Shown here: in pieces, positions 41,594 to 54,765 of the stretch
Layout: each line of letters begins with the position of its first letter
Position numbering within the stretch: position 1 is the first letter of the stretch
Source of the DNA: Escherichia virus TH58
DNA: 64,000 nt
Sequence record: MT446423.1
Strand: one strand, 5' to 3'
Position numbers and translations under genes: made by a program
Notes under the pieces: generated by a model
Database searches by the model: none
What the model was told of the DNA's origin: nothing
The model's input: only the letters and a program-made list of their open reading frames with translations

Positions 41594-41623
41594 GTTTACA
41601 ACCAAGGATGGTTGGAGTATAAT
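41594..41623 (+). promoter_or_regulatory. early promoter (-35 GTTTAC, -10 TATAAT)
   Basis: GTTTAC-aaccaaggatggttggag-TATAAT; near-duplicate of promoter at 42151. Confidence 0.55.
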
Positions 41624-41653
41624 CTTTCTATCTTAACCAAACAGGAAAACATT

Positions 41654-42148
41654 ATGAACATCAATACTACGGCTACTTACATCCTGAAAGACGAAAAACA
41701 AATCAACTGGTACGGTGCTTCAGTGCGAGCTTATGAAAAGTTTTGTGAAATTTTAGGTGCCACTCAAGGTAATAGTTTCACTATTGTTAACTTCATCAAA
41801 CAAGCTGAAGGTCCTTGGTTATTCTTAGAAATTAAAAATTCATATGGTACAATTTCTACTACCGCCCTTCCAAGCACCGACTTTGAACTGTTGATTGAAG
41901 AAGCACCTGTTAAAGATGGTCTCCACTTTGATATGGATATCGCTTGTATGTACGGTACTCTGATTAAGCCTATTGAGCCTACTGATTTGTTGTGTAAAGC
42001 TGTTTCGATTCGTCGTCCGTTTGCAGGTCCAGTGAGTGGATGGGTAACTGATCAGTGGATTGAAGACGGCGTTGAACTTCTGAACGTTGTTCATGCAGGT
42101 GATTTTAGTGTAGTTCCACGTAGTGCTGTGGTTAATATCCTTAATTAA
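41654..42148 (+). CDS. hypothetical protein, tandem paralog 1 of 3 (164 aa)
   Basis: Internal ATG of track ORF 41612-42148; C-terminal domain ..GWVTDQWIEDGVELLNVVHAGDFSVVP shared with next two genes. Confidence 0.5.
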   Translation: MNINTTATYILKDEKQINWYGASVRAYEKFCEILGATQGNSFTIVNFIKQAEGPWLFLEIKNSYGTISTTALPSTDFELLIEEAPVKDGLHFDMDIACMYGTLIKPIEPTDLLCKAVSIRRPFAGPVSGWVTDQWIEDGVELLNVVHAGDFSVVPRSAVVNILN

Positions 42149-42150
42149 TG

Positions 42151-42180
42151 TTGTACATCCAAGGATGGATGGAGTATAGT
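42151..42180 (+). promoter_or_regulatory. early promoter (-35 TTGTAC, -10 TATAGT)
   Basis: TTGTAC-atccaaggatggatggag-TATAGT. Confidence 0.5.
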
Positions 42181-42210
42181 GAATTCAATTTAAACAAAGA
42201 GAGAGAAATT

Positions 42211-42708
42211 ATGATTACTATTGGTGAAATCCTTCGTGTATCTCCTGCTTCTCGTTCTAAAGCTGCAGGTCGTCTGGTTGAAGTAGCAGGGCTTCGTACT
42301 AACGGCATGGGACGTGTTAAAGAAGTTAAAGTTCGAATCATGCCCAGTTTTGGCGGACAAGAGGCCCAGTATGCTTACGTAAGTCCTAAATTCCTGGAAA
42401 AACATATACGAGTCCAATTTGCTTCAAGCGAAGAAGTTGCACCTGCACACTTTGCTTCAAACGATATCGTTGAGCCTACTACACAGTTCAAATGGGCCCT
42501 TTGCAAAGGCGTTGAATTTATAACCGATAAAGAATTTGATTACATCGACGAATACGGTTATCCAAGCAAAACTGATATTATGTGCGGCTTCATTAGTGAC
42601 CAATGGGTTGAAGATGGTAAAAAGTTATACAATATTGTATTTTTAGGTGACTTCCGAGTTGTTGAAGAATCTGAAATCACTCGCTATGTTTCTCCTCGTA
42701 AAGCTTAA
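42211..42708 (+). CDS. hypothetical protein, tandem paralog 2 of 3 (165 aa)
   Basis: Internal ATG of track ORF 42148-42708; N-terminal SPASRSKAAGRLVEV and C-terminal GFISDQWVEDGKKLYNIVFLGDFRVV shared with paralog 3. Confidence 0.5.
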   Translation: MITIGEILRVSPASRSKAAGRLVEVAGLRTNGMGRVKEVKVRIMPSFGGQEAQYAYVSPKFLEKHIRVQFASSEEVAPAHFASNDIVEPTTQFKWALCKGVEFITDKEFDYIDEYGYPSKTDIMCGFISDQWVEDGKKLYNIVFLGDFRVVEESEITRYVSPRKA

Positions 42709-42717
42709 GGAATTATT

Positions 42718-43137
42718 ATGAATATTGCAAATCTCTCTATTGGTGATTATGTACACGTATCAGATGCTTCTCGCTCTAAAGTTGTCGGGAAGTTGGTCGA
42801 AGTTCTTTCTGTGAGTGATCCGGTTTTTGGACGTAACGAAGTTAAAGTTCGTGACGCTGATGGTAACATTGGTTACGTTAAAAGCCAATTCATTGAACCA
42901 GAAGAAAAAGCGTTCAAATGGAAACTGTGCAGATCGGTTTTAGTTGTAAAAGACCATGAATTTACTATTGCTGCTGCAACTGACGGGTCTCCATGGAAAA
43001 CTAAGCAAATAGCCGGATTTATTAGCGACCGTTGGGTAGAAGATGGTGTTAAGCTTTATAACATCGTTTTCGCTGGGCAGTTCATGGTAGTTCCTGAGTT
43101 CCAAATCAAAAAATATTGTCCAGCATCTTTTGCATAA
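42718..43137 (+). CDS. hypothetical protein, tandem paralog 3 of 3 (139 aa)
   Basis: Track ORF; N-terminal SDASRSKVVGKLVEV and C-terminal GFISDRWVEDGVKLYNIVFAGQFMVV. Confidence 0.5.
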   Translation: MNIANLSIGDYVHVSDASRSKVVGKLVEVLSVSDPVFGRNEVKVRDADGNIGYVKSQFIEPEEKAFKWKLCRSVLVVKDHEFTIAAATDGSPWKTKQIAGFISDRWVEDGVKLYNIVFAGQFMVVPEFQIKKYCPASFA

Positions 43138-43426: not shown

Positions 43427-43836
43427 TGGCTAATAAATTCCGCGTTAACTCATGGTACCAATTTATAGATAAACGTGCCCAAGAAGAGTTTATTAAAGAC
43501 CACACTGATAATGGGATTTATGCACGACGTCTTGGCATGGAACCATTTAAAGTATTAGATGTTGACCATCTTGGTCGTCCTACTAAAATTGTGACATCTA
43601 CTGGCATGGTTGGATATGCAACAGGCGGTGATATCCTTGATGAAAACTTTATCTGGCTCTCCACGAATGAAGCAGAGTTCTTTGAAGAAGTTGGAAATCC
43701 ATATCAAGCGTCTGAAGAGCAAGATTCTGGTGAACTTGACGAATTGTCTGAATTTCCTGTGATGACGATTACTATCGAAAATAATGACCAGGCATGGTCT
43801 TTGTATCAAATGTTGAAAGCACATTTTAAGGAATAA
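43426..43836 (+). CDS. hypothetical protein (136 aa)
   Basis: Internal ATG of track ORF 43408-43836. Confidence 0.5.
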
Positions 43837-43838
43837 TA

Positions 43839-44018
43839 ATGCCGTTATACGACTATAAATGCCAATCTGAAGATTGTGGTCATGAATATGAAAAAATTAA
43901 AAGGATTTCTGAACGAGAAAACGATGTTTGCCCTGAATGTCATCGTCTGTCTACTCGTCGGGTTTCTGCTCCTAAACATGTGAACGGTGGTTTTTACGAC
44001 TTACTTAAGAAGGGTTAA
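43839..44018 (+). CDS. small zinc-ribbon protein (59 aa)
   Basis: ORF below track cutoff; YDYKCQSEDCGHEYE .. CPECH two CxxC pairs; ATG just after upstream stop. Confidence 0.4.
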   Translation: MPLYDYKCQSEDCGHEYEKIKRISERENDVCPECHRLSTRRVSAPKHVNGGFYDLLKKG

Positions 44019-44020
44019 TT

Positions 44021-44446
44021 ATGGCTTTTAAAGGTTTTGAAGTTGGTAAGAAATATCGTATTATCAAAGGACAGGAAGATAATTTCTTGAGACTTCTTAA
44101 TACGACTGGTAAACGTCTTAATACTAATCTGCATACTACTTTATTGTCCAAAGATTTTATTGTGGAAAAGATGATTGGTTACGGTGTTTCTGTGATTGCT
44201 GTAGAAGCCGTAGGCGATTATGGCCGAACTATTCATAGTATGCAAGGTGATATTCTGCTTTATGGTGCAGAATTTAAATTCTTTGAAGAAGTTCCGGAAC
44301 CAGATACAGCTGTCGATTTCAAAAAAGGCTCTGTAGAATTTGTTGATGGTTCGGTGATCGTATCAGGTGATGTGGTCATTACAGTTAAAAGTGAACAAGG
44401 GCGTTTGGCTGCAATTGATGCACTTCAGAAAATTAAATTTAAATAA
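44021..44446 (+). CDS. hypothetical protein (141 aa)
   Basis: Track ORF. Confidence 0.5.
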   Translation: MAFKGFEVGKKYRIIKGQEDNFLRLLNTTGKRLNTNLHTTLLSKDFIVEKMIGYGVSVIAVEAVGDYGRTIHSMQGDILLYGAEFKFFEEVPEPDTAVDFKKGSVEFVDGSVIVSGDVVITVKSEQGRLAAIDALQKIKFK

Positions 44447-44468
44447 GGGCTTCGGCCCTTTTTGCTTT
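44445..44468 (+). terminator. rho-independent terminator
   Basis: GGGC-ttcg-GCCC followed by TTTTTGCTTT. Confidence 0.7.
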
Positions 44469-44487
44469 AGATTTCGGATGATAGAAT
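44463..44487 (+). promoter_or_regulatory. putative middle promoter for gene 39
   Basis: MotA-box TGCTTTA overlapping terminator T tract, 12-nt spacer, -10 TAGAAT. Confidence 0.4.
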
Positions 44488-44509
44488 ACCTTCATAACGA
44501 GGAGACAAC

Positions 44510-46330
44510 ATGATTAAAAATGAAATTAAGGTATTGTCAGACGTAGAACATATTAAGAAACGTAGTGGCATGTATATTGGTTCTTCGGCCAAAGAAGCCC
44601 ACGAGCGTTTTTTGTTTGGTAAATATCAACAAGTTGAATATGTTCCTGGTCTGGTTAAATTAATCGATGAGATTATTGACAACTCGGTTGATGAAGCTAT
44701 TCGTACATCATTTAAGTTTGCAAATAAAATTGATGTGCAAATTAAAAATAATCAAGTTTCTGTTGAAGATAACGGACGTGGTATTCCTCAAGGTTTAGTT
44801 ACCGACCAAACAGGTGAACAAATTCCTGGGCCTGTAGCAGCCTGGACTATTCCAAAGGCTGGCGGTAACTTTGGTGATGACTCTGAACGTAAGACTGGTG
44901 GTATGAATGGCGTCGGTAGTAGTTTAACTAATATCTTCTCTACGTTGTTTACAGGCATCACGTCAGATGGTGAAAATGAAATCACTGTTAACTGTTCAAA
45001 TGGAATGGAAAACAAATCATGGACTTCTAAGAAATCTAAAGGTAAAGGCACTAAAGTAATCTTCACTCCTGATTTCTCTTCATTCGAAGAGCATAATTTA
45101 TCTCAAATTTATTTAGATATTACTTTAGACCGACTTCAAACATTGGCAGTCGTTTATCCTGATATCAAGTTCACATTTAATGGTAAAAAGGTTGATGGTA
45201 ATTTTAAACGATTTGCTAAACAATTTGGCGAAGATAACATCATTCAAGAAAATGATAAAGTCTCTATAGCATTCACAACATCACCAGACGGCTTCCGTCA
45301 TTTAACTTATGTGAATAACATCCATACCAAAAATGGCGGTCATCATGTTGAATGTGTAATGGATGATATCTGCGAACATCTTTTGCCGGGTATTAAAAAG
45401 AAATATAAGGGTATTGAAGTCACTAAAGCTCGTGTTAAAGAATGTCTCACAATGTTGATGTTTATTAGAGACATGAGCAACATGCGTTTTGATTCTCAGA
45501 CTAAAGAACGTTTAACGTCAACGTATGGTGATATTCGTAATCATATCCAATTGGATGCTAAGAAAATTGCTCAGGCACTTCTTAAAAACGAAGCCTTGAT
45601 TATGCCTATTGTTGAAGCAGCATTAGCTCGTAAATTGGCAGCAGAAAAGGCTGCAGAAACTAAAGCAGCTAAAAAGGCAACTAAAGCTAAGGTTCATAAG
45701 CATATTAAAGCTAACCAATGTGGTAAAGATGCAGATACGACATTGTTTTTAACAGAAGGTGATTCGGCAATTGGTTATCTCATTGATGTTCGTGACCGTG
45801 AACTACACGGCGGATTCCCATTACGTGGTAAGGTGATGAATAGCTGGGGTATGTCATATGCTGATATGATGAAGAACAAAGAGCTCTTTGATATCTGTGC
45901 TATCACAGGTCTTATTCTTGGTGAAAAGGCAGAGAATACAAACTATCGTAATATTGCAATTATGACCGATGCCGATCATGACGGTCTTGGAAGTATTTAC
46001 CCGGCTTTGCTTGCTTTCTTTAGTAATTGGCCTGAATTGTTTGAACAAGGACGTATTCGCTTTGTTAAAACACCTGTAATTATTGCACAAATTGGCAAAA
46101 CTCAAAAATGGTTTTATACTGTAGCTGAGTATGAAGAAGCCAAAGATACACTGCCTAAGCATAGTATTCGATACATCAAGGGATTGGGCTCACTTCAGCG
46201 GGATGAATATAAAGAAATGATTCAAAACCCTGTGTACGATGTAGTTAAACTTCCTGAAAATTGGAAAGAACTATTTGAAATGCTCATGGGTAACGACCCT
46301 GAACTCCGTAAAGACTGGATGCTTGGTTAA
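44510..46330 (+). CDS. 39: DNA topoisomerase II large subunit (gp39 and gp60 as one continuous ORF)
   Basis: 606 aa; GHKL ATPase (IDNSVDEA), Toprim (LFLTEGDSA, IMTDADHDG); covers both the T4 gp39 and gp60 regions in a single frame. Confidence 0.9.
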   Translation: MIKNEIKVLSDVEHIKKRSGMYIGSSAKEAHERFLFGKYQQVEYVPGLVKLIDEIIDNSVDEAIRTSFKFANKIDVQIKNNQVSVEDNGRGIPQGLVTDQTGEQIPGPVAAWTIPKAGGNFGDDSERKTGGMNGVGSSLTNIFSTLFTGITSDGENEITVNCSNGMENKSWTSKKSKGKGTKVIFTPDFSSFEEHNLSQIYLDITLDRLQTLAVVYPDIKFTFNGKKVDGNFKRFAKQFGEDNIIQENDKVSIAFTTSPDGFRHLTYVNNIHTKNGGHHVECVMDDICEHLLPGIKKKYKGIEVTKARVKECLTMLMFIRDMSNMRFDSQTKERLTSTYGDIRNHIQLDAKKIAQALLKNEALIMPIVEAALARKLAAEKAAETKAAKKATKAKVHKHIKANQCGKDADTTLFLTEGDSAIGYLIDVRDRELHGGFPLRGKVMNSWGMSYADMMKNKELFDICAITGLILGEKAENTNYRNIAIMTDADHDGLGSIYPALLAFFSNWPELFEQGRIRFVKTPVIIAQIGKTQKWFYTVAEYEEAKDTLPKHSIRYIKGLGSLQRDEYKEMIQNPVYDVVKLPENWKELFEMLMGNDPELRKDWMLG

Positions 46331-46344
46331 TTGATAGATGTCCT

Positions 46345-46376
46345 AAGCTCCTGAAGGAGCTTCATTTTAATTTTTA
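46345..46376 (+). terminator. putative terminator
   Basis: AAGCTCC-tgaa-GGAGCTT followed by CATTTTAATTTTT. Confidence 0.5.
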
Positions 46377-46389
46377 ATAAGGCTTAATT

Positions 46390-47490
46390 ATGAAAGTTAT
46401 GTTTATCCCATCTCGTGCGGTCCCATTTAATCCTGACCGTGTACAAGGTGGCCTTGAAGCAGTACATTTAAATGTGTTGAAATATTTAGTTTCTATTGGT
46501 GCTGATATTGATTATATCGGTTTTGATAATGACACGTTTGGTGACTGGAAAGTTACACACCATCCTGTTGGTCATCTGACTAAATTCAGTCTAGGTATGA
46601 GTTATACTATGGCTCGTAAGATTGTTGAACTAGCCGGCATCCATGAATACGATTTTGTTGTTACTATGGAACCGACTAAACTAACCGTTCAGGCAATTAA
46701 AGACGCAGGTCTCTCTAAAGTTCATAAGAATTTTATGGCAACACCATTTGAACCGGTATCTCGTGGCATTGTTCAAATTTGGGACCAGACTATTCAAATT
46801 CATAAGAATGGTGGTAAGAGTTATGCTCCTACTAAAGCCTTCCGTGAATTTGAACGTAAATATTGTTATATGACTTCAGGTCTGACTGACAAAATTGATT
46901 ATGATTATTGGCGAGCAAATCCGTTGTTTGAAGCCGAAGATTATCCGGTTATTTGTTTGAATGAGAAACCTGAAGTTCTTCCGGCGACTGATTTGATTAT
47001 TAGTGCACAACGTTATGACACTAAAATGCGTCGTACTGATGTTGCTCTTGAAGCGATTAAAGCACTAGGCGAAAATGGTGTAGGATATTGTCCAAGCAAA
47101 TGGGCACCACCAGCTAAATATCCTGTTATTATTGATGCTCAACATAGTGAAATCATGGAACGTCTTAAAACAGCTAAAGCACTTATTAATACGTGTCCTG
47201 ACACAGGTACGGTAGAGAATAGTTCTATTGAAGCCATCTCTAAAGGTGTCCCTGTAATCCAGTTAGTTTTTAAGGATTATCCTCATGCGACATTCGAATA
47301 CGACCCAGATACTGTGCGTGTAGAAATTGATTCCTCTACTCCTAAGAAAGAAGTAGTTGCGCTTTACACAAAAGCTGTATTAGAATTCACTGACACATAC
47401 GAAGCTCGAGTTAAACGTGCTGAAGCAGTATGGAAGAAGTATAATCGAGATGCAGTTGTTGCGATGTGGGATAAAATCTTCACAGCGTAA
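46390..47490 (+). CDS. GT-B-fold glycosyltransferase (GT1/GT4-like), 366 aa; second candidate DNA-modifying glycosyltransferase
   Basis: N-terminal MKVMFIPSRAV..GGLEAVHLNV and C-terminal GTVENSSIEAISKGVPVI resemble GT-B donor-binding motifs; absent from T4 at this locus. Confidence 0.6.
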   Translation: MKVMFIPSRAVPFNPDRVQGGLEAVHLNVLKYLVSIGADIDYIGFDNDTFGDWKVTHHPVGHLTKFSLGMSYTMARKIVELAGIHEYDFVVTMEPTKLTVQAIKDAGLSKVHKNFMATPFEPVSRGIVQIWDQTIQIHKNGGKSYAPTKAFREFERKYCYMTSGLTDKIDYDYWRANPLFEAEDYPVICLNEKPEVLPATDLIISAQRYDTKMRRTDVALEAIKALGENGVGYCPSKWAPPAKYPVIIDAQHSEIMERLKTAKALINTCPDTGTVENSSIEAISKGVPVIQLVFKDYPHATFEYDPDTVRVEIDSSTPKKEVVALYTKAVLEFTDTYEARVKRAEAVWKKYNRDAVVAMWDKIFTA

Positions 47491-47506
47491 ATCCTGAATA
47501 GCCTGA

Positions 47507-47557
47507 GGCACTATTACACATAAGATGATAAATTATATGGTCTTTAGTAATAGTGCC
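47507..47557 (+). repeat. perfect 11-bp inverted repeat with 29-nt loop
   Basis: GGCACTATTAC ..29 nt.. GTAATAGTGCC between glycosyltransferase gene and ORF 47583. Confidence 0.5.
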
Positions 47558-47582
47558 CTAGCAATCTACTGAAGAGAATATT

Positions 47583-47783
47583 ATGAGAACGTATAACGTA
47601 GACTTGGAACTTTTTGATAAAGCAGTGCTCCGGGAATTCCGGCTTATCCAAAGATTTTTTGATATCGAATCAGCTGAAGCCTTTAAAGAACGCTTTAAGG
47701 AAATTCGATATAAAATACAAAACGATACAGCTACTAAAGAAGAACTTCTTGAAGTAGCAGAAATTTTTAAACGTAACTTGTGA
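47583..47783 (+). CDS. hypothetical protein (66 aa) upstream of rIIA
   Basis: Track ORF with GAAGAGAA SD. Confidence 0.5.
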   Translation: MRTYNVDLELFDKAVLREFRLIQRFFDIESAEAFKERFKEIRYKIQNDTATKEELLEVAEIFKRNL

Positions 47784-47795
47784 TGAGAGAAAAAT

Positions 47796-50009
47796 ATGAT
47801 TATTGAAACGGCTAAAGAAACGATTATTGGTTCAGGCGGTAAGAGCACAGCATTTACTATTCAAGGCAATAGCAAAGTTTATAAGATTTTGTCTAATGAC
47901 CTTTATACAAACAAAGAATTGGCTTGTGTACGTGAATTAATCACAAACTGTATCGATGGACAAATTCTTAACGGTTGCACTGATAAGTTTATTGTTCAGG
48001 CTCCAGGTCGTTTAGACCCGCGTTTTGTAGTTCGAGACTTTGGTCCTGGTATGAGTGATTTCACCATTCGAGGTAATGACGAAGAGCCAGGAATCTATAA
48101 CTCATATTTTGCTTCAACTAAAACATCGAGTAACGATTTCATTGGTGGATTCGGACTCGGCTCTAAAGCTCCACTAGCATATACCGATACGTTTAACCTT
48201 ACGTCTTATCACAACGGTGAAGTTCGTGGTTATGTAATTTATCAAGATGACAGTGGTCCACAAATTAAGCCAACCTTTGTAGATAAGATGGGCCCTGATG
48301 ACCGGACTGGCGTTGAAGTAGTTGTGCCTGTTAACCCAGAAGATTTTGAAAAGTTCGCATCTGAAATTGCATATGTTATGCGTCCTCTAGGTGATATTGC
48401 AGAAGTTCGTGGTGTTAAAGATATCAAATACTTCCCTGAATTTGACGATGTATATTTGGCCAAGGAAGCTCCATGGGGTGAACGCGGTAATATCATGGCT
48501 GTTTATGGCGGTATTGTATATCCAATCGGAAGTGTTATTAAAGAACAAACGTGGATGATGACGCGATGCACTACAGCTTATATTAAATTCCCTATGGGTG
48601 AACTAGATGTAGCTCCGTCTCGTGAAGCATTGTCATTTGATAAACGTACAGTAGCAAATATCCATAAACGTGTTGCAGAAATCGATGCTAAATTGTTCGC
48701 TGAAGATTCTAAGAAATGGATTGATTGTAAATACCCACGTCATGTGTTCCGTGAAATTGATTCTCTTGGCTATACCGCTCGTAAATACATGGAAAAGGCC
48801 GGGTCTAATATTGAATCACTGAAATACTCTAAAGAACAACTAACTTATTCTGAGTTGTACAAACGTTTTAAAATGGGGCCTGAGTGGTGTAATCTTGGTG
48901 TCGTATACGATATCGTTGAATCCCCTCGTCTTCGTCGTATTCGTGAAAGCGGTAGCTCAACGGCAACCATTTCAATTAACAGTCTGATTGGCATTAACAT
49001 TAAAAATGTTGAAATTGTTATTGACGACGTTAAGGGACGCGTTCCATTAATGCGAGCTCTTAATTCAATTGAAATGTCTAAAGACGAGGTTAAATTAACC
49101 GGTAAAGTTCCACGCGGTTTTGGTAAAAGCGTACTATTCGTTGACCCTACAGACGAAGATGCAATGAAACTTCTGGAACGCCTTAAAGTTATCTTTGATG
49201 GCGACAACATTAACATGTACAAGACTTCAGAGCTTTTACAAATCGTTAAGCCATGGATTGAAGTCAGGAAACGGACTAATGAGCCTCGTCCTAAATCGCC
49301 AAGTGCTCATCGATTCTTTAAGAATGAAAACGATGTTTGGGTATCAGAAGACCTCTTTATTCCGGCAAGTGAAGCAGATGAAATCCAAGGTTATGCTATA
49401 GTTCGTAATCGTTCTAATGCTGAATGTCTTGACGCAGATAAAGGTTGGTTGAACTATGACTCCAATTTCTTAACCCGTATTGCTGATTTGTCAGGTATTA
49501 AAGAGTTCACTGTAGTTCGTCCACAGATTGCTAAGAAAGTTCGTAAACTTGGTGAAGTAGAATGCTTGTTCGAAAAATCAATTAATGACTATATTACGCT
49601 AATCGATAAAGTGGATTATGATGAGTATGTATCACCAAGTCGTAGAGCACAGCCTTATTTGAATCATATTACTCGTAATGAAGAGCTTAACTTCCTTAGT
49701 AAGTATTTTAGCTCTAAGAACAAAGAAATCAGTAAAGACTTTGCAAAGCTCTCAACAGTAAATAATCGTTGGGGATGGAATCGATTCGCAGGTGCTACTA
49801 ATACAGACCTGAATAAGAAGTTAGAATTGTGTGCTAAAATTTTCGATAAGCTTAAAGATAATGCTTACGATAATGATGATAAAATGGTTATTGAATTTGA
49901 AACCAATTATCATATTGTGTCAGAATACATGGGACGACGTGGTACTCTTTCTAAAGAACAGGTCGCTCAAATCGTTAAATTCATGAAGGCCGTGGAAGCG
50001 GCCAAATAA
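47796..50009 (+). CDS. rIIA: rIIA protein
   Basis: 737 aa; N-terminal GHKL-like ATPase region; followed by rIIB as in T4. Confidence 0.9.
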   Translation: MIIETAKETIIGSGGKSTAFTIQGNSKVYKILSNDLYTNKELACVRELITNCIDGQILNGCTDKFIVQAPGRLDPRFVVRDFGPGMSDFTIRGNDEEPGIYNSYFASTKTSSNDFIGGFGLGSKAPLAYTDTFNLTSYHNGEVRGYVIYQDDSGPQIKPTFVDKMGPDDRTGVEVVVPVNPEDFEKFASEIAYVMRPLGDIAEVRGVKDIKYFPEFDDVYLAKEAPWGERGNIMAVYGGIVYPIGSVIKEQTWMMTRCTTAYIKFPMGELDVAPSREALSFDKRTVANIHKRVAEIDAKLFAEDSKKWIDCKYPRHVFREIDSLGYTARKYMEKAGSNIESLKYSKEQLTYSELYKRFKMGPEWCNLGVVYDIVESPRLRRIRESGSSTATISINSLIGINIKNVEIVIDDVKGRVPLMRALNSIEMSKDEVKLTGKVPRGFGKSVLFVDPTDEDAMKLLERLKVIFDGDNINMYKTSELLQIVKPWIEVRKRTNEPRPKSPSAHRFFKNENDVWVSEDLFIPASEADEIQGYAIVRNRSNAECLDADKGWLNYDSNFLTRIADLSGIKEFTVVRPQIAKKVRKLGEVECLFEKSINDYITLIDKVDYDEYVSPSRRAQPYLNHITRNEELNFLSKYFSSKNKEISKDFAKLSTVNNRWGWNRFAGATNTDLNKKLELCAKIFDKLKDNAYDNDDKMVIEFETNYHIVSEYMGRRGTLSKEQVAQIVKFMKAVEAAK

Positions 50010-50018
50010 GGAAACATT

Positions 50019-50966
50019 ATGTACAATATCAAATGCTTGTCCCAAGAAGAACAGTTAGAAGCTTACGGCCTGGTTGAATCAGGCAAATGGACTCGTAAAG
50101 AAATTGCTGATTACTTCGACATTTCAACAGATACTCTTCGTAAGATTGTTAAGAATTTTAAAGCTGAAGGCGTTGTCCCTGAAGCAAACGATGCCTCTTA
50201 TGTAATCGAAGAAGTTCCAGAAAATAATGAACCTATTATTACAGGTCACCGTCCAGAAATAGTATGGAACGCGTCATCTAAATTTATTTCAATCATTGAA
50301 GGACGCGTAGCATACAATGCGACCCCATCAAGTCATGCAAATTTTGAAGAAATTAAAGCTAATTTGGTCGCAGGAAACCTTAGTAAAGCTGTCGAACTTA
50401 TTAACATCAAGAAAGCTATTAGTAAGTTTGTTGACGGTAATGTTGTTATTGAAGGTGGTAGTTTATTTTATCAAGGTATAGAGATTCGTTCTGGTCTGGT
50501 TAATCGTATTATTGATTCTATGGAAAAAGGCGAAGACTTTAAATTCTATCTACCGTTCCTTGAAAACCTGTTAGAAAACCCAAGCGAAAAAGCTGTACAA
50601 CGTTTATTCGACTTCTTGGTTGCAAATGATATTGAAATCACTGAAGATGGGCATTTCTACGCGTGGAAAGTAGTTCGTAAAGATTATTTAGATTGCTATA
50701 GCGGTACATTTGATAACTCACCAGGTAAAGTTGTTTCAATGCCTCGTACTCGTGTTAACGATGATGATACACAAACCTGCTCCCGTGGTCTACATGTTTG
50801 CGCTAAATCGTATATTCGTTACTTTGGTTCTAGCTCAGATAAAGTTGTTAAGGTTAAAGTTCATCCACGTGATGTTGTGTCCATCCCAGTTGACTATGGC
50901 GATGCTAAGATGCGTACTTGTCGTTATGAAGTAATTTCAGACGTTACTGAATTATTTGCAGAATAA
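50019..50966 (+). CDS. rIIB: rIIB protein
   Basis: 315 aa directly downstream of rIIA; T4 size and synteny. Confidence 0.88.
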   Translation: MYNIKCLSQEEQLEAYGLVESGKWTRKEIADYFDISTDTLRKIVKNFKAEGVVPEANDASYVIEEVPENNEPIITGHRPEIVWNASSKFISIIEGRVAYNATPSSHANFEEIKANLVAGNLSKAVELINIKKAISKFVDGNVVIEGGSLFYQGIEIRSGLVNRIIDSMEKGEDFKFYLPFLENLLENPSEKAVQRLFDFLVANDIEITEDGHFYAWKVVRKDYLDCYSGTFDNSPGKVVSMPRTRVNDDDTQTCSRGLHVCAKSYIRYFGSSSDKVVKVKVHPRDVVSIPVDYGDAKMRTCRYEVISDVTELFAE

Positions 50967-53439: not shown

Positions 53440-54765
53440 ATGCAATTGAATTCTCGTAATCTAAAAAGTATTATTGATAACGAAGCCTTAGCATATGCTA
53501 TGTACACCGTTGAAAACCGTGCAATCCCAAACATGATTGATGGATTTAAGCCGGTTCAACGTTTTGTAGTTCATCGTGCATTAGATTTGGCTCGTGGTAA
53601 TAAAGAAAAATTTCATAAACTTGCGTCAATTGCAGGTGGTGTAGCAGACCTTGGATATCATCATGGTGAAATCTCTGCGCAAGACGCAGGTGCTTTGATG
53701 GCTAATACTTGGAATAATAACTTTCCTCTGTTAGATGGTCAAGGAAACTTTGGTTCTAGAACAGTCCAAAAAGCTGCAGCATCTCGTTATATTTTTGCTC
53801 GTGTAAGTAAAAATTTCTATAACGTATATAAAGATACTGAATATGCTCCAGCTCATGAAGATAAAGAACACGTTCCACCAAAATTCTATCTTCCTATTAT
53901 TCCGACAGTTCTTTTGAATGGTGTCTCCGGTATTGCAACCGGTTATGCAACAAATATTCTGCCTCATAGTTTTAAATCGGTCAAAAAGGCGGTATTACAA
54001 GCTCTTCAAGGTAAAAATGTCACTAAGCCAAAAGTTGAATTCCCAGAATTCCGTGGTGAAGTGCATGAAGTTGATGGGCGTTATGAGATTCACGGAACAT
54101 ACAAGTTCACATCTCGTACTCAAATGCAGATAACTGAAATCCCATATAAATTCGACCGTGAAACGTATGTGAGTAAGGTTCTTGACCCGTTGGAAGACAA
54201 AGGTCTAATCTCATGGGAAGATGATTGTGGTGAACACGGCTTTGGGTTTAAGGTGAAGTTCCGTAAAGAGTACTCGCTTCCTGATGATGAAGAGCTACGT
54301 CATGAAAAAATCATGAAAGATTTTAGTCTCATCGAACGTCGCTCACAAAACATCACAGTGATTAATGAAAAGGGTAAATTAGCGGTCTACGATAACGTAG
54401 TGGACTTAATCAAAGATTTTGTTGAAGTCCGTAAGACTTACGTTCAGAAACGTATTGACAACAAAATCCTTGAATCTGAAAAAGCATTTAAACTGGCTTT
54501 TGCTAAGGCACACTTCATCAAAAAAGTTATCAGTGGCGAAATTGTGATTCAAGGCAAGACCCGTAAAGCTTTGACTGAAGAGCTAGCACAAATCGAAATG
54601 TACAAAGAACATGTCGATAAACTGGTGGGTCTTAACATCTTCCATATCACTTCTGACGAAGCACGTAAACTGGCAGAAGAAGCTAAAGCTAAGAAAGAAG
54701 AAAATGAGTATTGGAAGTCTACTGATGTTGTGACAGAGTACACTAAAGACTTGGAGGCGCTTTGA
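53440..54765 (+). CDS. 52: DNA topoisomerase II medium subunit gp52 (GyrA-like)
   Basis: 441 aa; N-terminal ..TVENRAIPNMIDGFKPVQRFV.. topo IIA DNA-cleavage domain. Confidence 0.9.
   Translation: MQLNSRNLKSIIDNEALAYAMYTVENRAIPNMIDGFKPVQRFVVHRALDLARGNKEKFHKLASIAGGVADLGYHHGEISAQDAGALMANTWNNNFPLLDGQGNFGSRTVQKAAASRYIFARVSKNFYNVYKDTEYAPAHEDKEHVPPKFYLPIIPTVLLNGVSGIATGYATNILPHSFKSVKKAVLQALQGKNVTKPKVEFPEFRGEVHEVDGRYEIHGTYKFTSRTQMQITEIPYKFDRETYVSKVLDPLEDKGLISWEDDCGEHGFGFKVKFRKEYSLPDDEELRHEKIMKDFSLIERRSQNITVINEKGKLAVYDNVVDLIKDFVEVRKTYVQKRIDNKILESEKAFKLAFAKAHFIKKVISGEIVIQGKTRKALTEELAQIEMYKEHVDKLVGLNIFHITSDEARKLAEEAKAKKEENEYWKSTDVVTEYTKDLEAL

Follow-up and report, generated by a model that had tools for sequence, protein, structure and literature searches.

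Positions 44510..46330 (+) of the Escherichia virus TH58 DNA analyzed here (a stretch of 64,000 nt from sequence record MT446423.1, in the following called the window) almost certainly represent the ancestral one-piece gene 39 of Mosigvirus, which is predicted from its sequence to encode the GyrB/ParE-like subunit of a type IIA topoisomerase acting together with gp52 and which the mobile MobA element seems never to have entered in this lineage. This assignment is directly supported by the integrity of the ORF, its domains and motifs, the colinearity at both sites at which the T4 locus is interrupted, the orthology and synteny with RB69, and the presence of the gene for gp52. The one-piece gene 39 of TH58 is the ordinary default state and T4 is the exception, as was already known. 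New to this analysis is the mosaic 3' end of the gene, which is endonuclease-linked and carries a scar; both readings of its origin that are discussed below are standard homing-endonuclease biology.

Reading frame, domains and coding constraint of gene 39

The ORF listing of the window contains a frame with ATG start at 44510..46330 (+) that encodes 606 aa, and its translation revealed no in-frame stop within this interval. The sequence-only reading of this DNA had proposed precisely such a single, uninterrupted ORF, had identified it as the topoisomerase large subunit and had let it span from the GHKL ATPase to the Toprim domain. All three statements agree with our results: the exact coordinates were recovered, the domain order and motifs are those expected, and the identity is supported by matches to PHROGs, to PDB structures and to the T4 proteins gp39 and gp60. 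From the N- to the C-terminus, Pfam returned HATPase_c (aa 47-189, E=3.6e-11), DNA_gyraseB (aa 249-385, E=2.7e-14), Toprim (aa 411-519) and TOPRIM_C (aa 520-603), with the Toprim match at 17.5 bits being under the curated cut-off of 23.1 and TOPRIM_C just under its own cut-off. The Toprim domain was nevertheless assigned, because the far stronger PHROG and PDB matches span it fully; the former, phrog_543 'DNA topoisomerase II large subunit', covers aa 1-604 with E=1e-286. The GHKL ATPase motifs are present as N-box EIIDNSVDE (54-62), G1 EDNGRGIP (86-93) and G2 GGMNGVGSS (130-138), the lysine of the transducer QTK loop is found in SQTKERL (329-335), and the Toprim motifs TEGDSA (415-420), which holds the catalytic Glu, and DADHDG (487-492), which forms the acidic cluster (DxDxD) for metal binding, reside on one polypeptide. 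Hence, the GHKL fold, transducer and Toprim domain that characterize the B-type subunit of type IIA topoisomerases are all found, as is the partner gene. Beside the conserved QTK loop, codons ~326-328 of gp39 in the T4 reference NC_000866 read NMRLIRQTKERL, where TH58 gene 39 and the structure 8ylu_C read NMRFDSQTKERL; this is possibly a sequencing discrepancy of the old reference.

The comparison with T2 gene 39 yielded 222 codons with synonymous-only and 113 with amino-acid-changing differences, and the nucleotide differences were distributed as 97/59/301 over the three codon positions. Because the substitutions are mostly synonymous, this pattern indicates a genuine and constrained reading frame. 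It also bears on the possibility that the true gene is interrupted and that the continuous ORF merely reflects an error of assembly or sequencing. Such errors do occur in records of this gene family, as illustrated by the RB69 reference, whose gene 39 contains small indels within its first 150 nt that compensate each other. However, the search of phage records with the gene 39 protein detected the same uninterrupted frame in 144 independent records at an identity of at least 95% and in 23 at an identity of at least 99%, the ORF length of 1821 nt is identical in five independently sequenced relatives, and the substitutions are those of a translated gene, which makes an artefact hardly credible.

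Colinearity with the split T4 locus

According to the T4 annotation, gene 39 encodes 516 aa, and the locus further contains the mobA pseudogene, 60.1 and gene 60, the last of which includes the 50-nt bypass region. This agrees with the earlier statement that the subunit is divided in T4 between genes 39 and 60, with a mobile-element insertion and a translational bypass in gene 60. The alignment with both T4 genes, which had been suggested as a check, showed by BLASTP that aa 1-474 of the TH58 protein correspond to T4 gp39 1-473 (79% identity) and aa 473-604 to T4 gp60 27-158 (83%). The junction is gapless, with no unmatched TH58 residues between the gp39 and gp60 parts in this comparison. T4 alone possesses 43 extra C-terminal aa on gp39 and ~30 extra N-terminal aa on gp60, which have no counterpart in TH58. 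From the ends of the BLASTP matches, the position equivalent to the T4 gene 39/mobA/gene 60 split was placed at A474/E475 (45929..45934, +), where the TH58 gene is contiguous and colinear with T2 and RB69. This colinearity with T2 (605 aa) and RB69 (606 aa) extends over aa 465-500.

The second T4 interruption was localized by placing both DNA sequences side by side. The equivalent of the gene 60 take-off and landing sites is G492 GGT followed by L493 CTT at 45983..45988 (+). T4 gene 60 reads GAT GGA, then the 50 nt, then TTA GGT, whereas TH58 has the contiguous GAC GGT CTT GGA at 45980-45991; the T4 take-off codon GGA is followed by a stop, while the TH58 position reads GGT CTT. Thus, neither a 50-nt coding gap nor a stop follows the Gly codon at 45983..45988 in the comparison with T4 gene 60, and CATGACGGT is joined directly and in frame to CTTGGAAGT. 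The earlier claim that a bypass element is lacking holds at this site. Moreover, a blastn search with the whole T4 39-mobA-60 region aligned the coding flanks alone and detected no mobA/60.1 insert or bypass remnants in the gene 39 ORF. None of the hallmarks of the MobA/bypass-cassette split, i.e. the split with terminal extensions, a MobA ORF or pseudogene, and the 50-nt gap, is found in TH58 gene 39. The T4 arrangement of split genes and 50-nt bypass derives from a mobile MobA cassette, which probably never entered the TH58 lineage.

A single ORF might also arise secondarily, if the lineage had once been split by MobA and the two halves were later rejoined, which would make the TH58 gene a derived form. 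Clades in which the halves were fused again after a MobA insertion have indeed been described as rare cases (bioRxiv 10.1101/2022.08.31.505936), but such re-fused genes keep the cassette-encoded C- and N-terminal extensions (~70 aa within the Toprim domain). TH58 gene 39 has no added residues compared with T2 and RB69 over aa 465-500, the T4 match is gapless at the junction, and the listed matches to the T4 insert include none in gene 39 of a Mosigvirus. Re-fusion is therefore regarded as very improbable, and we retain the interpretation of an ancestrally continuous gene.

The region 45920-46010 corresponds to the part of the T2 gene for which nicking and insertion by MobA have been described; it is intact in TH58, with 88 of 114 nt identical to T2, and its protein sequence is near-identical to that of T2. 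Judged from this sequence, TH58 gene 39 could in principle serve as an unoccupied target for MobA-type cassettes, and it adds one more example of such a target. MobA-type cassettes have not been reported in Mosigvirus.

Distribution of the one-piece gene

According to the literature, the unsplit large-subunit gene is ancestral and prevails by far over the split form (PMC3014915; bioRxiv 10.1101/2022.08.31.505936), and a review on mobile elements agrees on the single gene as ancestral (PMC2988022). According to the 2022 preprint, the MobA/bypass cassette occurs in 28 genomes belonging to six clades, each of which has close relatives without the cassette (bioRxiv 10.1101/2022.08.31.505936). Our searches in 50,697 phage records point in the same direction. 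The gene 39 protein matched 2198 records and was full-length in 2006 of them, a figure that takes in a few split genes joined from nearby pieces (e.g. HY03, Pm5461) and, like all record counts given here, is drawn from a redundant and E. coli-biased collection. Only 41 records contained the T4 insert at a coverage of 80% or more; the sampled ones were T4-like phages infecting E. coli or Salmonella, and no Mosigvirus was among them. Among the listed insert matches with less than 80% coverage, those in Escherichia and Shigella phages fell on different mob-type genes (e.g. mobE), and those next to topoisomerase genes belong to Salmonella, Proteus and Acinetobacter phages. Hence, outside T4-like phages the T4 insert occurs in only a few clades of this collection. 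In addition, a 201-nt probe covering both sites at which T4 is interrupted matched 1125 records and was contiguous in 1000 of them, among these all sampled Mosigviruses.

The noteworthiness implied by the sequence-only reading could thus not be upheld, since the unsplit form is ancestral and commonest and RB69, which is the type phage of the genus, had already been annotated with the same 606-aa gene. The RB69 gene product, NP_861694 'DNA topoisomerase II large subunit', is annotated as unsplit in a record that already notes the insertion splitting the subunit in T4, and the gene is called 60plus39 in some annotations. The practical value of the present assignment lies in correct annotation, because several relatives are mislabelled as 'parE', 'gyrB' or 'hypothetical protein'.

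Relationship to RB69 and the partner subunit gp52

The window belongs to a Mosigvirus (RB69-like) genome. The gene 39 protein is 99.8% identical to that of the Shigella phage phi25-307, also a Mosigvirus, and 94.9% identical to RB69 gp39 with the same length of 606 aa. The 12 kb around gene 39 are 96-97% identical to many Mosigvirus genomes, and the gene order gene 39 - ORF003c - rIIA.1 - rIIA - rIIB matches RB69. Identity, length and synteny with RB69 consequently all identify the gene as the Mosigvirus orthologue of gene 39. RB69 also shares with TH58 the layout of upstream hairpin, promoter-like sequence and Shine-Dalgarno sequence, and differs from it in the last ~170 nt, where the C-terminus is EWMS* in RB69 and DWMLG* in TH58. 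Most other differences between both gp39 proteins fall in aa 14-47. In the RB69 reference NC_004928 (5330-5483, gene 39 codons 14-47), several indels of 1-2 nt within the first ~150 nt differ from TH58 and from all other Mosigviruses, and the amino-acid sequence is locally scrambled. These differences resemble sequencing errors of an early record that compensate each other, rather than real divergence.

For several relatives, the annotation reads 'parE: DNA topoisomerase 4 subunit B' or 'gyrB', which might indicate that a bacterial parE or gyrB gene was captured instead of a T-even gene 39 being inherited. There is next to no chance that this is correct. Bacterial GyrB/ParE proteins and the N-terminal halves of eukaryotic Topo II share with the TH58 protein the succession of GHKL ATPase, transducer and Toprim domains as well as the motifs, but they are only distantly similar to it (134-213 bits versus 1151 bits for the phage structure). 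A captured bacterial gene is difficult to reconcile with scores of 1151 bits for T-even gp39, 168 for ParE and 134 for GyrB, and eukaryotic Topo II (213) even exceeds both bacterial proteins. Furthermore, the partner is the short 441-aa gp52 and not a ParC or GyrA protein, the gene order is that of RB69, and the labels are pipeline names for a shared superfamily. Gene 39 is therefore treated further as the T-even large-subunit gene.

The partner, gene 52, is located at 53440..54765 (+) and encodes a 441-aa topoisomerase II medium subunit (GyrA/ParC-like, DNA breakage-reunion), as supported by Pfam (DNA_topoisoIV, E=7.6e-77), PHROGs (phrog_551), the PDB and a motif. Its aa 1-440 match 8ylu_A/8yo3_A 'DNA topoisomerase medium subunit' with E=1e-266, and the catalytic-tyrosine motif AASRY contains Tyr116. 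The gene 39 protein matches over aa 1-604 the single chain 8ylu_C (611 residues, 1151 bits), named 'DNA topoisomerase (ATP-hydrolyzing)' by the depositors, which is T6 gp39 solved by cryo-EM in complex with gp52 (PMC11461880). The T2 and T6 topoisomerases consist of two subunit types, ATP-dependent strand passage has been shown biochemically for the T4 and T6 enzymes, and the ~70-aa Toprim insertion of T4 hangs outside the domain with little effect on relaxation activity (PMC11461880). The gp39 proteins of T2 and T6 resemble that of TH58 in being single chains, ~81% identical end-to-end over aa 1-604, with catalytic motifs kept and a gp52 partner; they differ in belonging to Tequatrovirus instead of Mosigvirus, in ~19% amino-acid divergence and in a one-residue length difference.

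By analogy with these homologues, the A2B2 stoichiometry, the enzymatic activity and the replication role might be transferred to the gp39-gp52 pair of TH58, and the 81% identity suggests that its enzyme likewise performs ATP-dependent strand passage. Two gp39 and two gp52 subunits would assemble into an A2B2 enzyme, in which the ATPase gate of gp39 would capture the transport duplex, and the metal-binding Toprim domain together with the gp52 tyrosine would cleave the gate duplex. ATP hydrolysis would then drive strand passage, by which the phage DNA would be relaxed or untangled in replication. TH58 thus appears to possess a standard two-subunit T-even topoisomerase II in a MobA-free and bypass-free genome, as expected for Mosigvirus.

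Mosaic 3' end and insertion scar of gene 39

In phage phi25-307, a gene for a homing endonuclease (HNH/NUMOD3, 265 aa) begins directly at the stop codon of gene 39 (TAATG). A free-standing endonuclease gene also follows this stop in p000v, BYEP01 (Tequatrovirus) and AV118, where it is annotated as two ORFs and is 1 nt longer than the intact copies. Altogether, the endonuclease gene was found in ~28 records and an endonuclease-free junction in ~134. The TH58 window contains no HNH/NUMOD3 endonuclease gene after gene 39. Hence, the earlier claim that an endonuclease insert is missing stands for the interior of the ORF, where none was found, but it does not extend to the 3' end, which carries a haplotype and a 19-nt remnant tied to the HNH endonuclease.

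The haplotype became apparent when identities were compared by segment. Gene 39 nt 151-1650 are ~98% identical to all Mosigviruses of both groups, with and without the endonuclease. From nt 1651 to the end, corresponding to a mosaic tract at 46160..46330 (+) that is endonuclease-linked in relatives, the identity is 97-99% to endonuclease-bearing phages of three gene 39 backgrounds and only 81-82% to endonuclease-free Mosigviruses. The 97-99% identity in the tract is found in AV118 and BYEP01 despite the bulk of their gene 39 being only 81% and 78% identical to TH58, respectively. With the tract, the C-terminus changes from ...EWMS* to ...DWMLG*.

The comparison of three states between fixed anchors further identified a 19-nt insertion relative to RB69-type phages, CTTGGTTAATTGATAGATG, at 46322..46340 (+), which supplies the last two codons and the stop of gene 39; the former gene end ATGTCCTAA is still present at 46338-46346. 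The site measures 26 nt when empty (GAATGGATG directly followed by TCCTAA), 826 nt when endonuclease-bearing and 45 nt as scar, the latter reading TGGATG-CTTGGTTAAT-TGATAGATG-TCCTAA in the TH58 window. The 19 extra nt of the scar resemble both ends of the endonuclease cassette joined together (its first 10 and last 9 nt), with 15 identical positions, and the scar is common to only five database phages, phiEC1, OLB35, LF82-4, CCU7 and TH12. By sequence comparison, tract and 19-nt remnant form a haplotype that is otherwise seen only beside a free-standing HNH endonuclease gene.

Because the endonuclease-linked tract and the remnant are present while the endonuclease gene itself is absent, invasion followed by loss is suggested. 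In a full homing cycle, a mob-type HNH/NUMOD3 cassette would have invaded the lineage with co-conversion and would then have been mostly deleted, leaving the tract at 46160-46330 and the remnant at 46322-46340; we consider this scenario somewhat better than an even bet. The cassette would move between T-even genera with replacement of ~170-400 nt of the gene 39 3' end and provide a new stop, and possible stages of such a cycle are found in the database as intact (phi25-307, p000v, BYEP01), frameshifted (AV118) and deleted forms (the TH58 window and five phages). Alternatively, the 3' tract could have been gained by recombination from an unsampled lineage. An endonuclease-free source lineage was not seen among the sampled ones of the 34 records that are at least 95% identical to the tract, a sample comprising only two of them, one with scar and one endonuclease-bearing. 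The number of 34 agrees with the ~28 endonuclease-bearing plus 5-6 scar genomes. Invasion with co-conversion and subsequent deletion of the endonuclease is thus favoured over recombinational acquisition of the tract. The mosaic end and its scar would then illustrate on a small scale how the termini of essential genes are altered by free-standing homing endonucleases that later disappear, which fits established ideas on the homing cycle and does not change them.

Flanking elements and gene neighborhood

Between the upstream 141-aa ORF and gene 39, the scan for terminator-like structures detected a GC-rich hairpin with TTCG loop, AAGGGCTTCGGCCCTT, followed by a T run at 44445..44460 (+). The same architecture precedes gene 39 in RB69, T4 and T2, and the element might be terminator-like or RNA-stabilising. 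It is directly followed by a sequence resembling T4 middle promoters at 44461..44487 (+), which consists of the MotA-box-like TTTGCTTTA (44461-44469), found by regex for the MotA-box consensus, a 12-nt spacer and the -10-like TAGAAT (44482-44487). RB69 has TTTGCTTTA and TAGAAT identical to TH58, and T4 and T2 show the same layout with the variant box TAGCTTTA and TATAAT; a function as middle promoter is plausible. The Shine-Dalgarno sequence GAGGAG, read directly from the sequence, is situated at 44499..44504 (+), 5 nt before the ATG. Downstream of gene 39, the terminator scan revealed the hairpin AAGCTCC-TGAA-GGAGCTT followed by a T-rich run at 46345..46362 (+), which is kept in relatives with varying loop. 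Over the region 43800-47900, terminator-like hairpins are enriched (7 versus 2.2 in shuffled controls), and the sigma-70 promoter scan was not informative (10 matches versus 14.2 in shuffled controls). Rfam searches at gathering thresholds and a tRNA scan over the whole window returned nothing.

Gene 39 and rIIA.1 are separated by a 366-aa ORF (46390-47490, +) that shares 99% identity with RB69 ORF003c; it gave no Pfam match and belongs to phrog_8302 of unknown function. RB69 ORF003c has been proposed to be a GT-B arabinosyltransferase for DNA containing arabinosyl-hydroxymethylcytosine (PMC6024577), and because of this close homology the sequence suggests that TH58 has ara-hmC DNA as well. 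The 366-aa ORF is followed by an rIIA.1-like ORF of 66 aa (47583-47783, +), rIIA with 737 aa (47796-50009, +; phrog_612, E=3e-226) and rIIB (50019-50966). The stretch from ORF003c over rIIA.1 and rIIA to rIIB corresponds to the 'genome start' region of T4 in reversed orientation relative to reference records. Finally, three tandem ORFs of 178, 186 and 139 aa at 41612-43137 (+) have the common C-terminal motif …SDQWVEDG.KLYN(I/V)VF.G.F.VV… and correspond to the MotB-like/motB.2 region of RB69. In phi25-307 only two ORFs are found in this region, which aligns poorly over window positions ~41660-42150, hence the number of MotB-like paralogues varies among close relatives.
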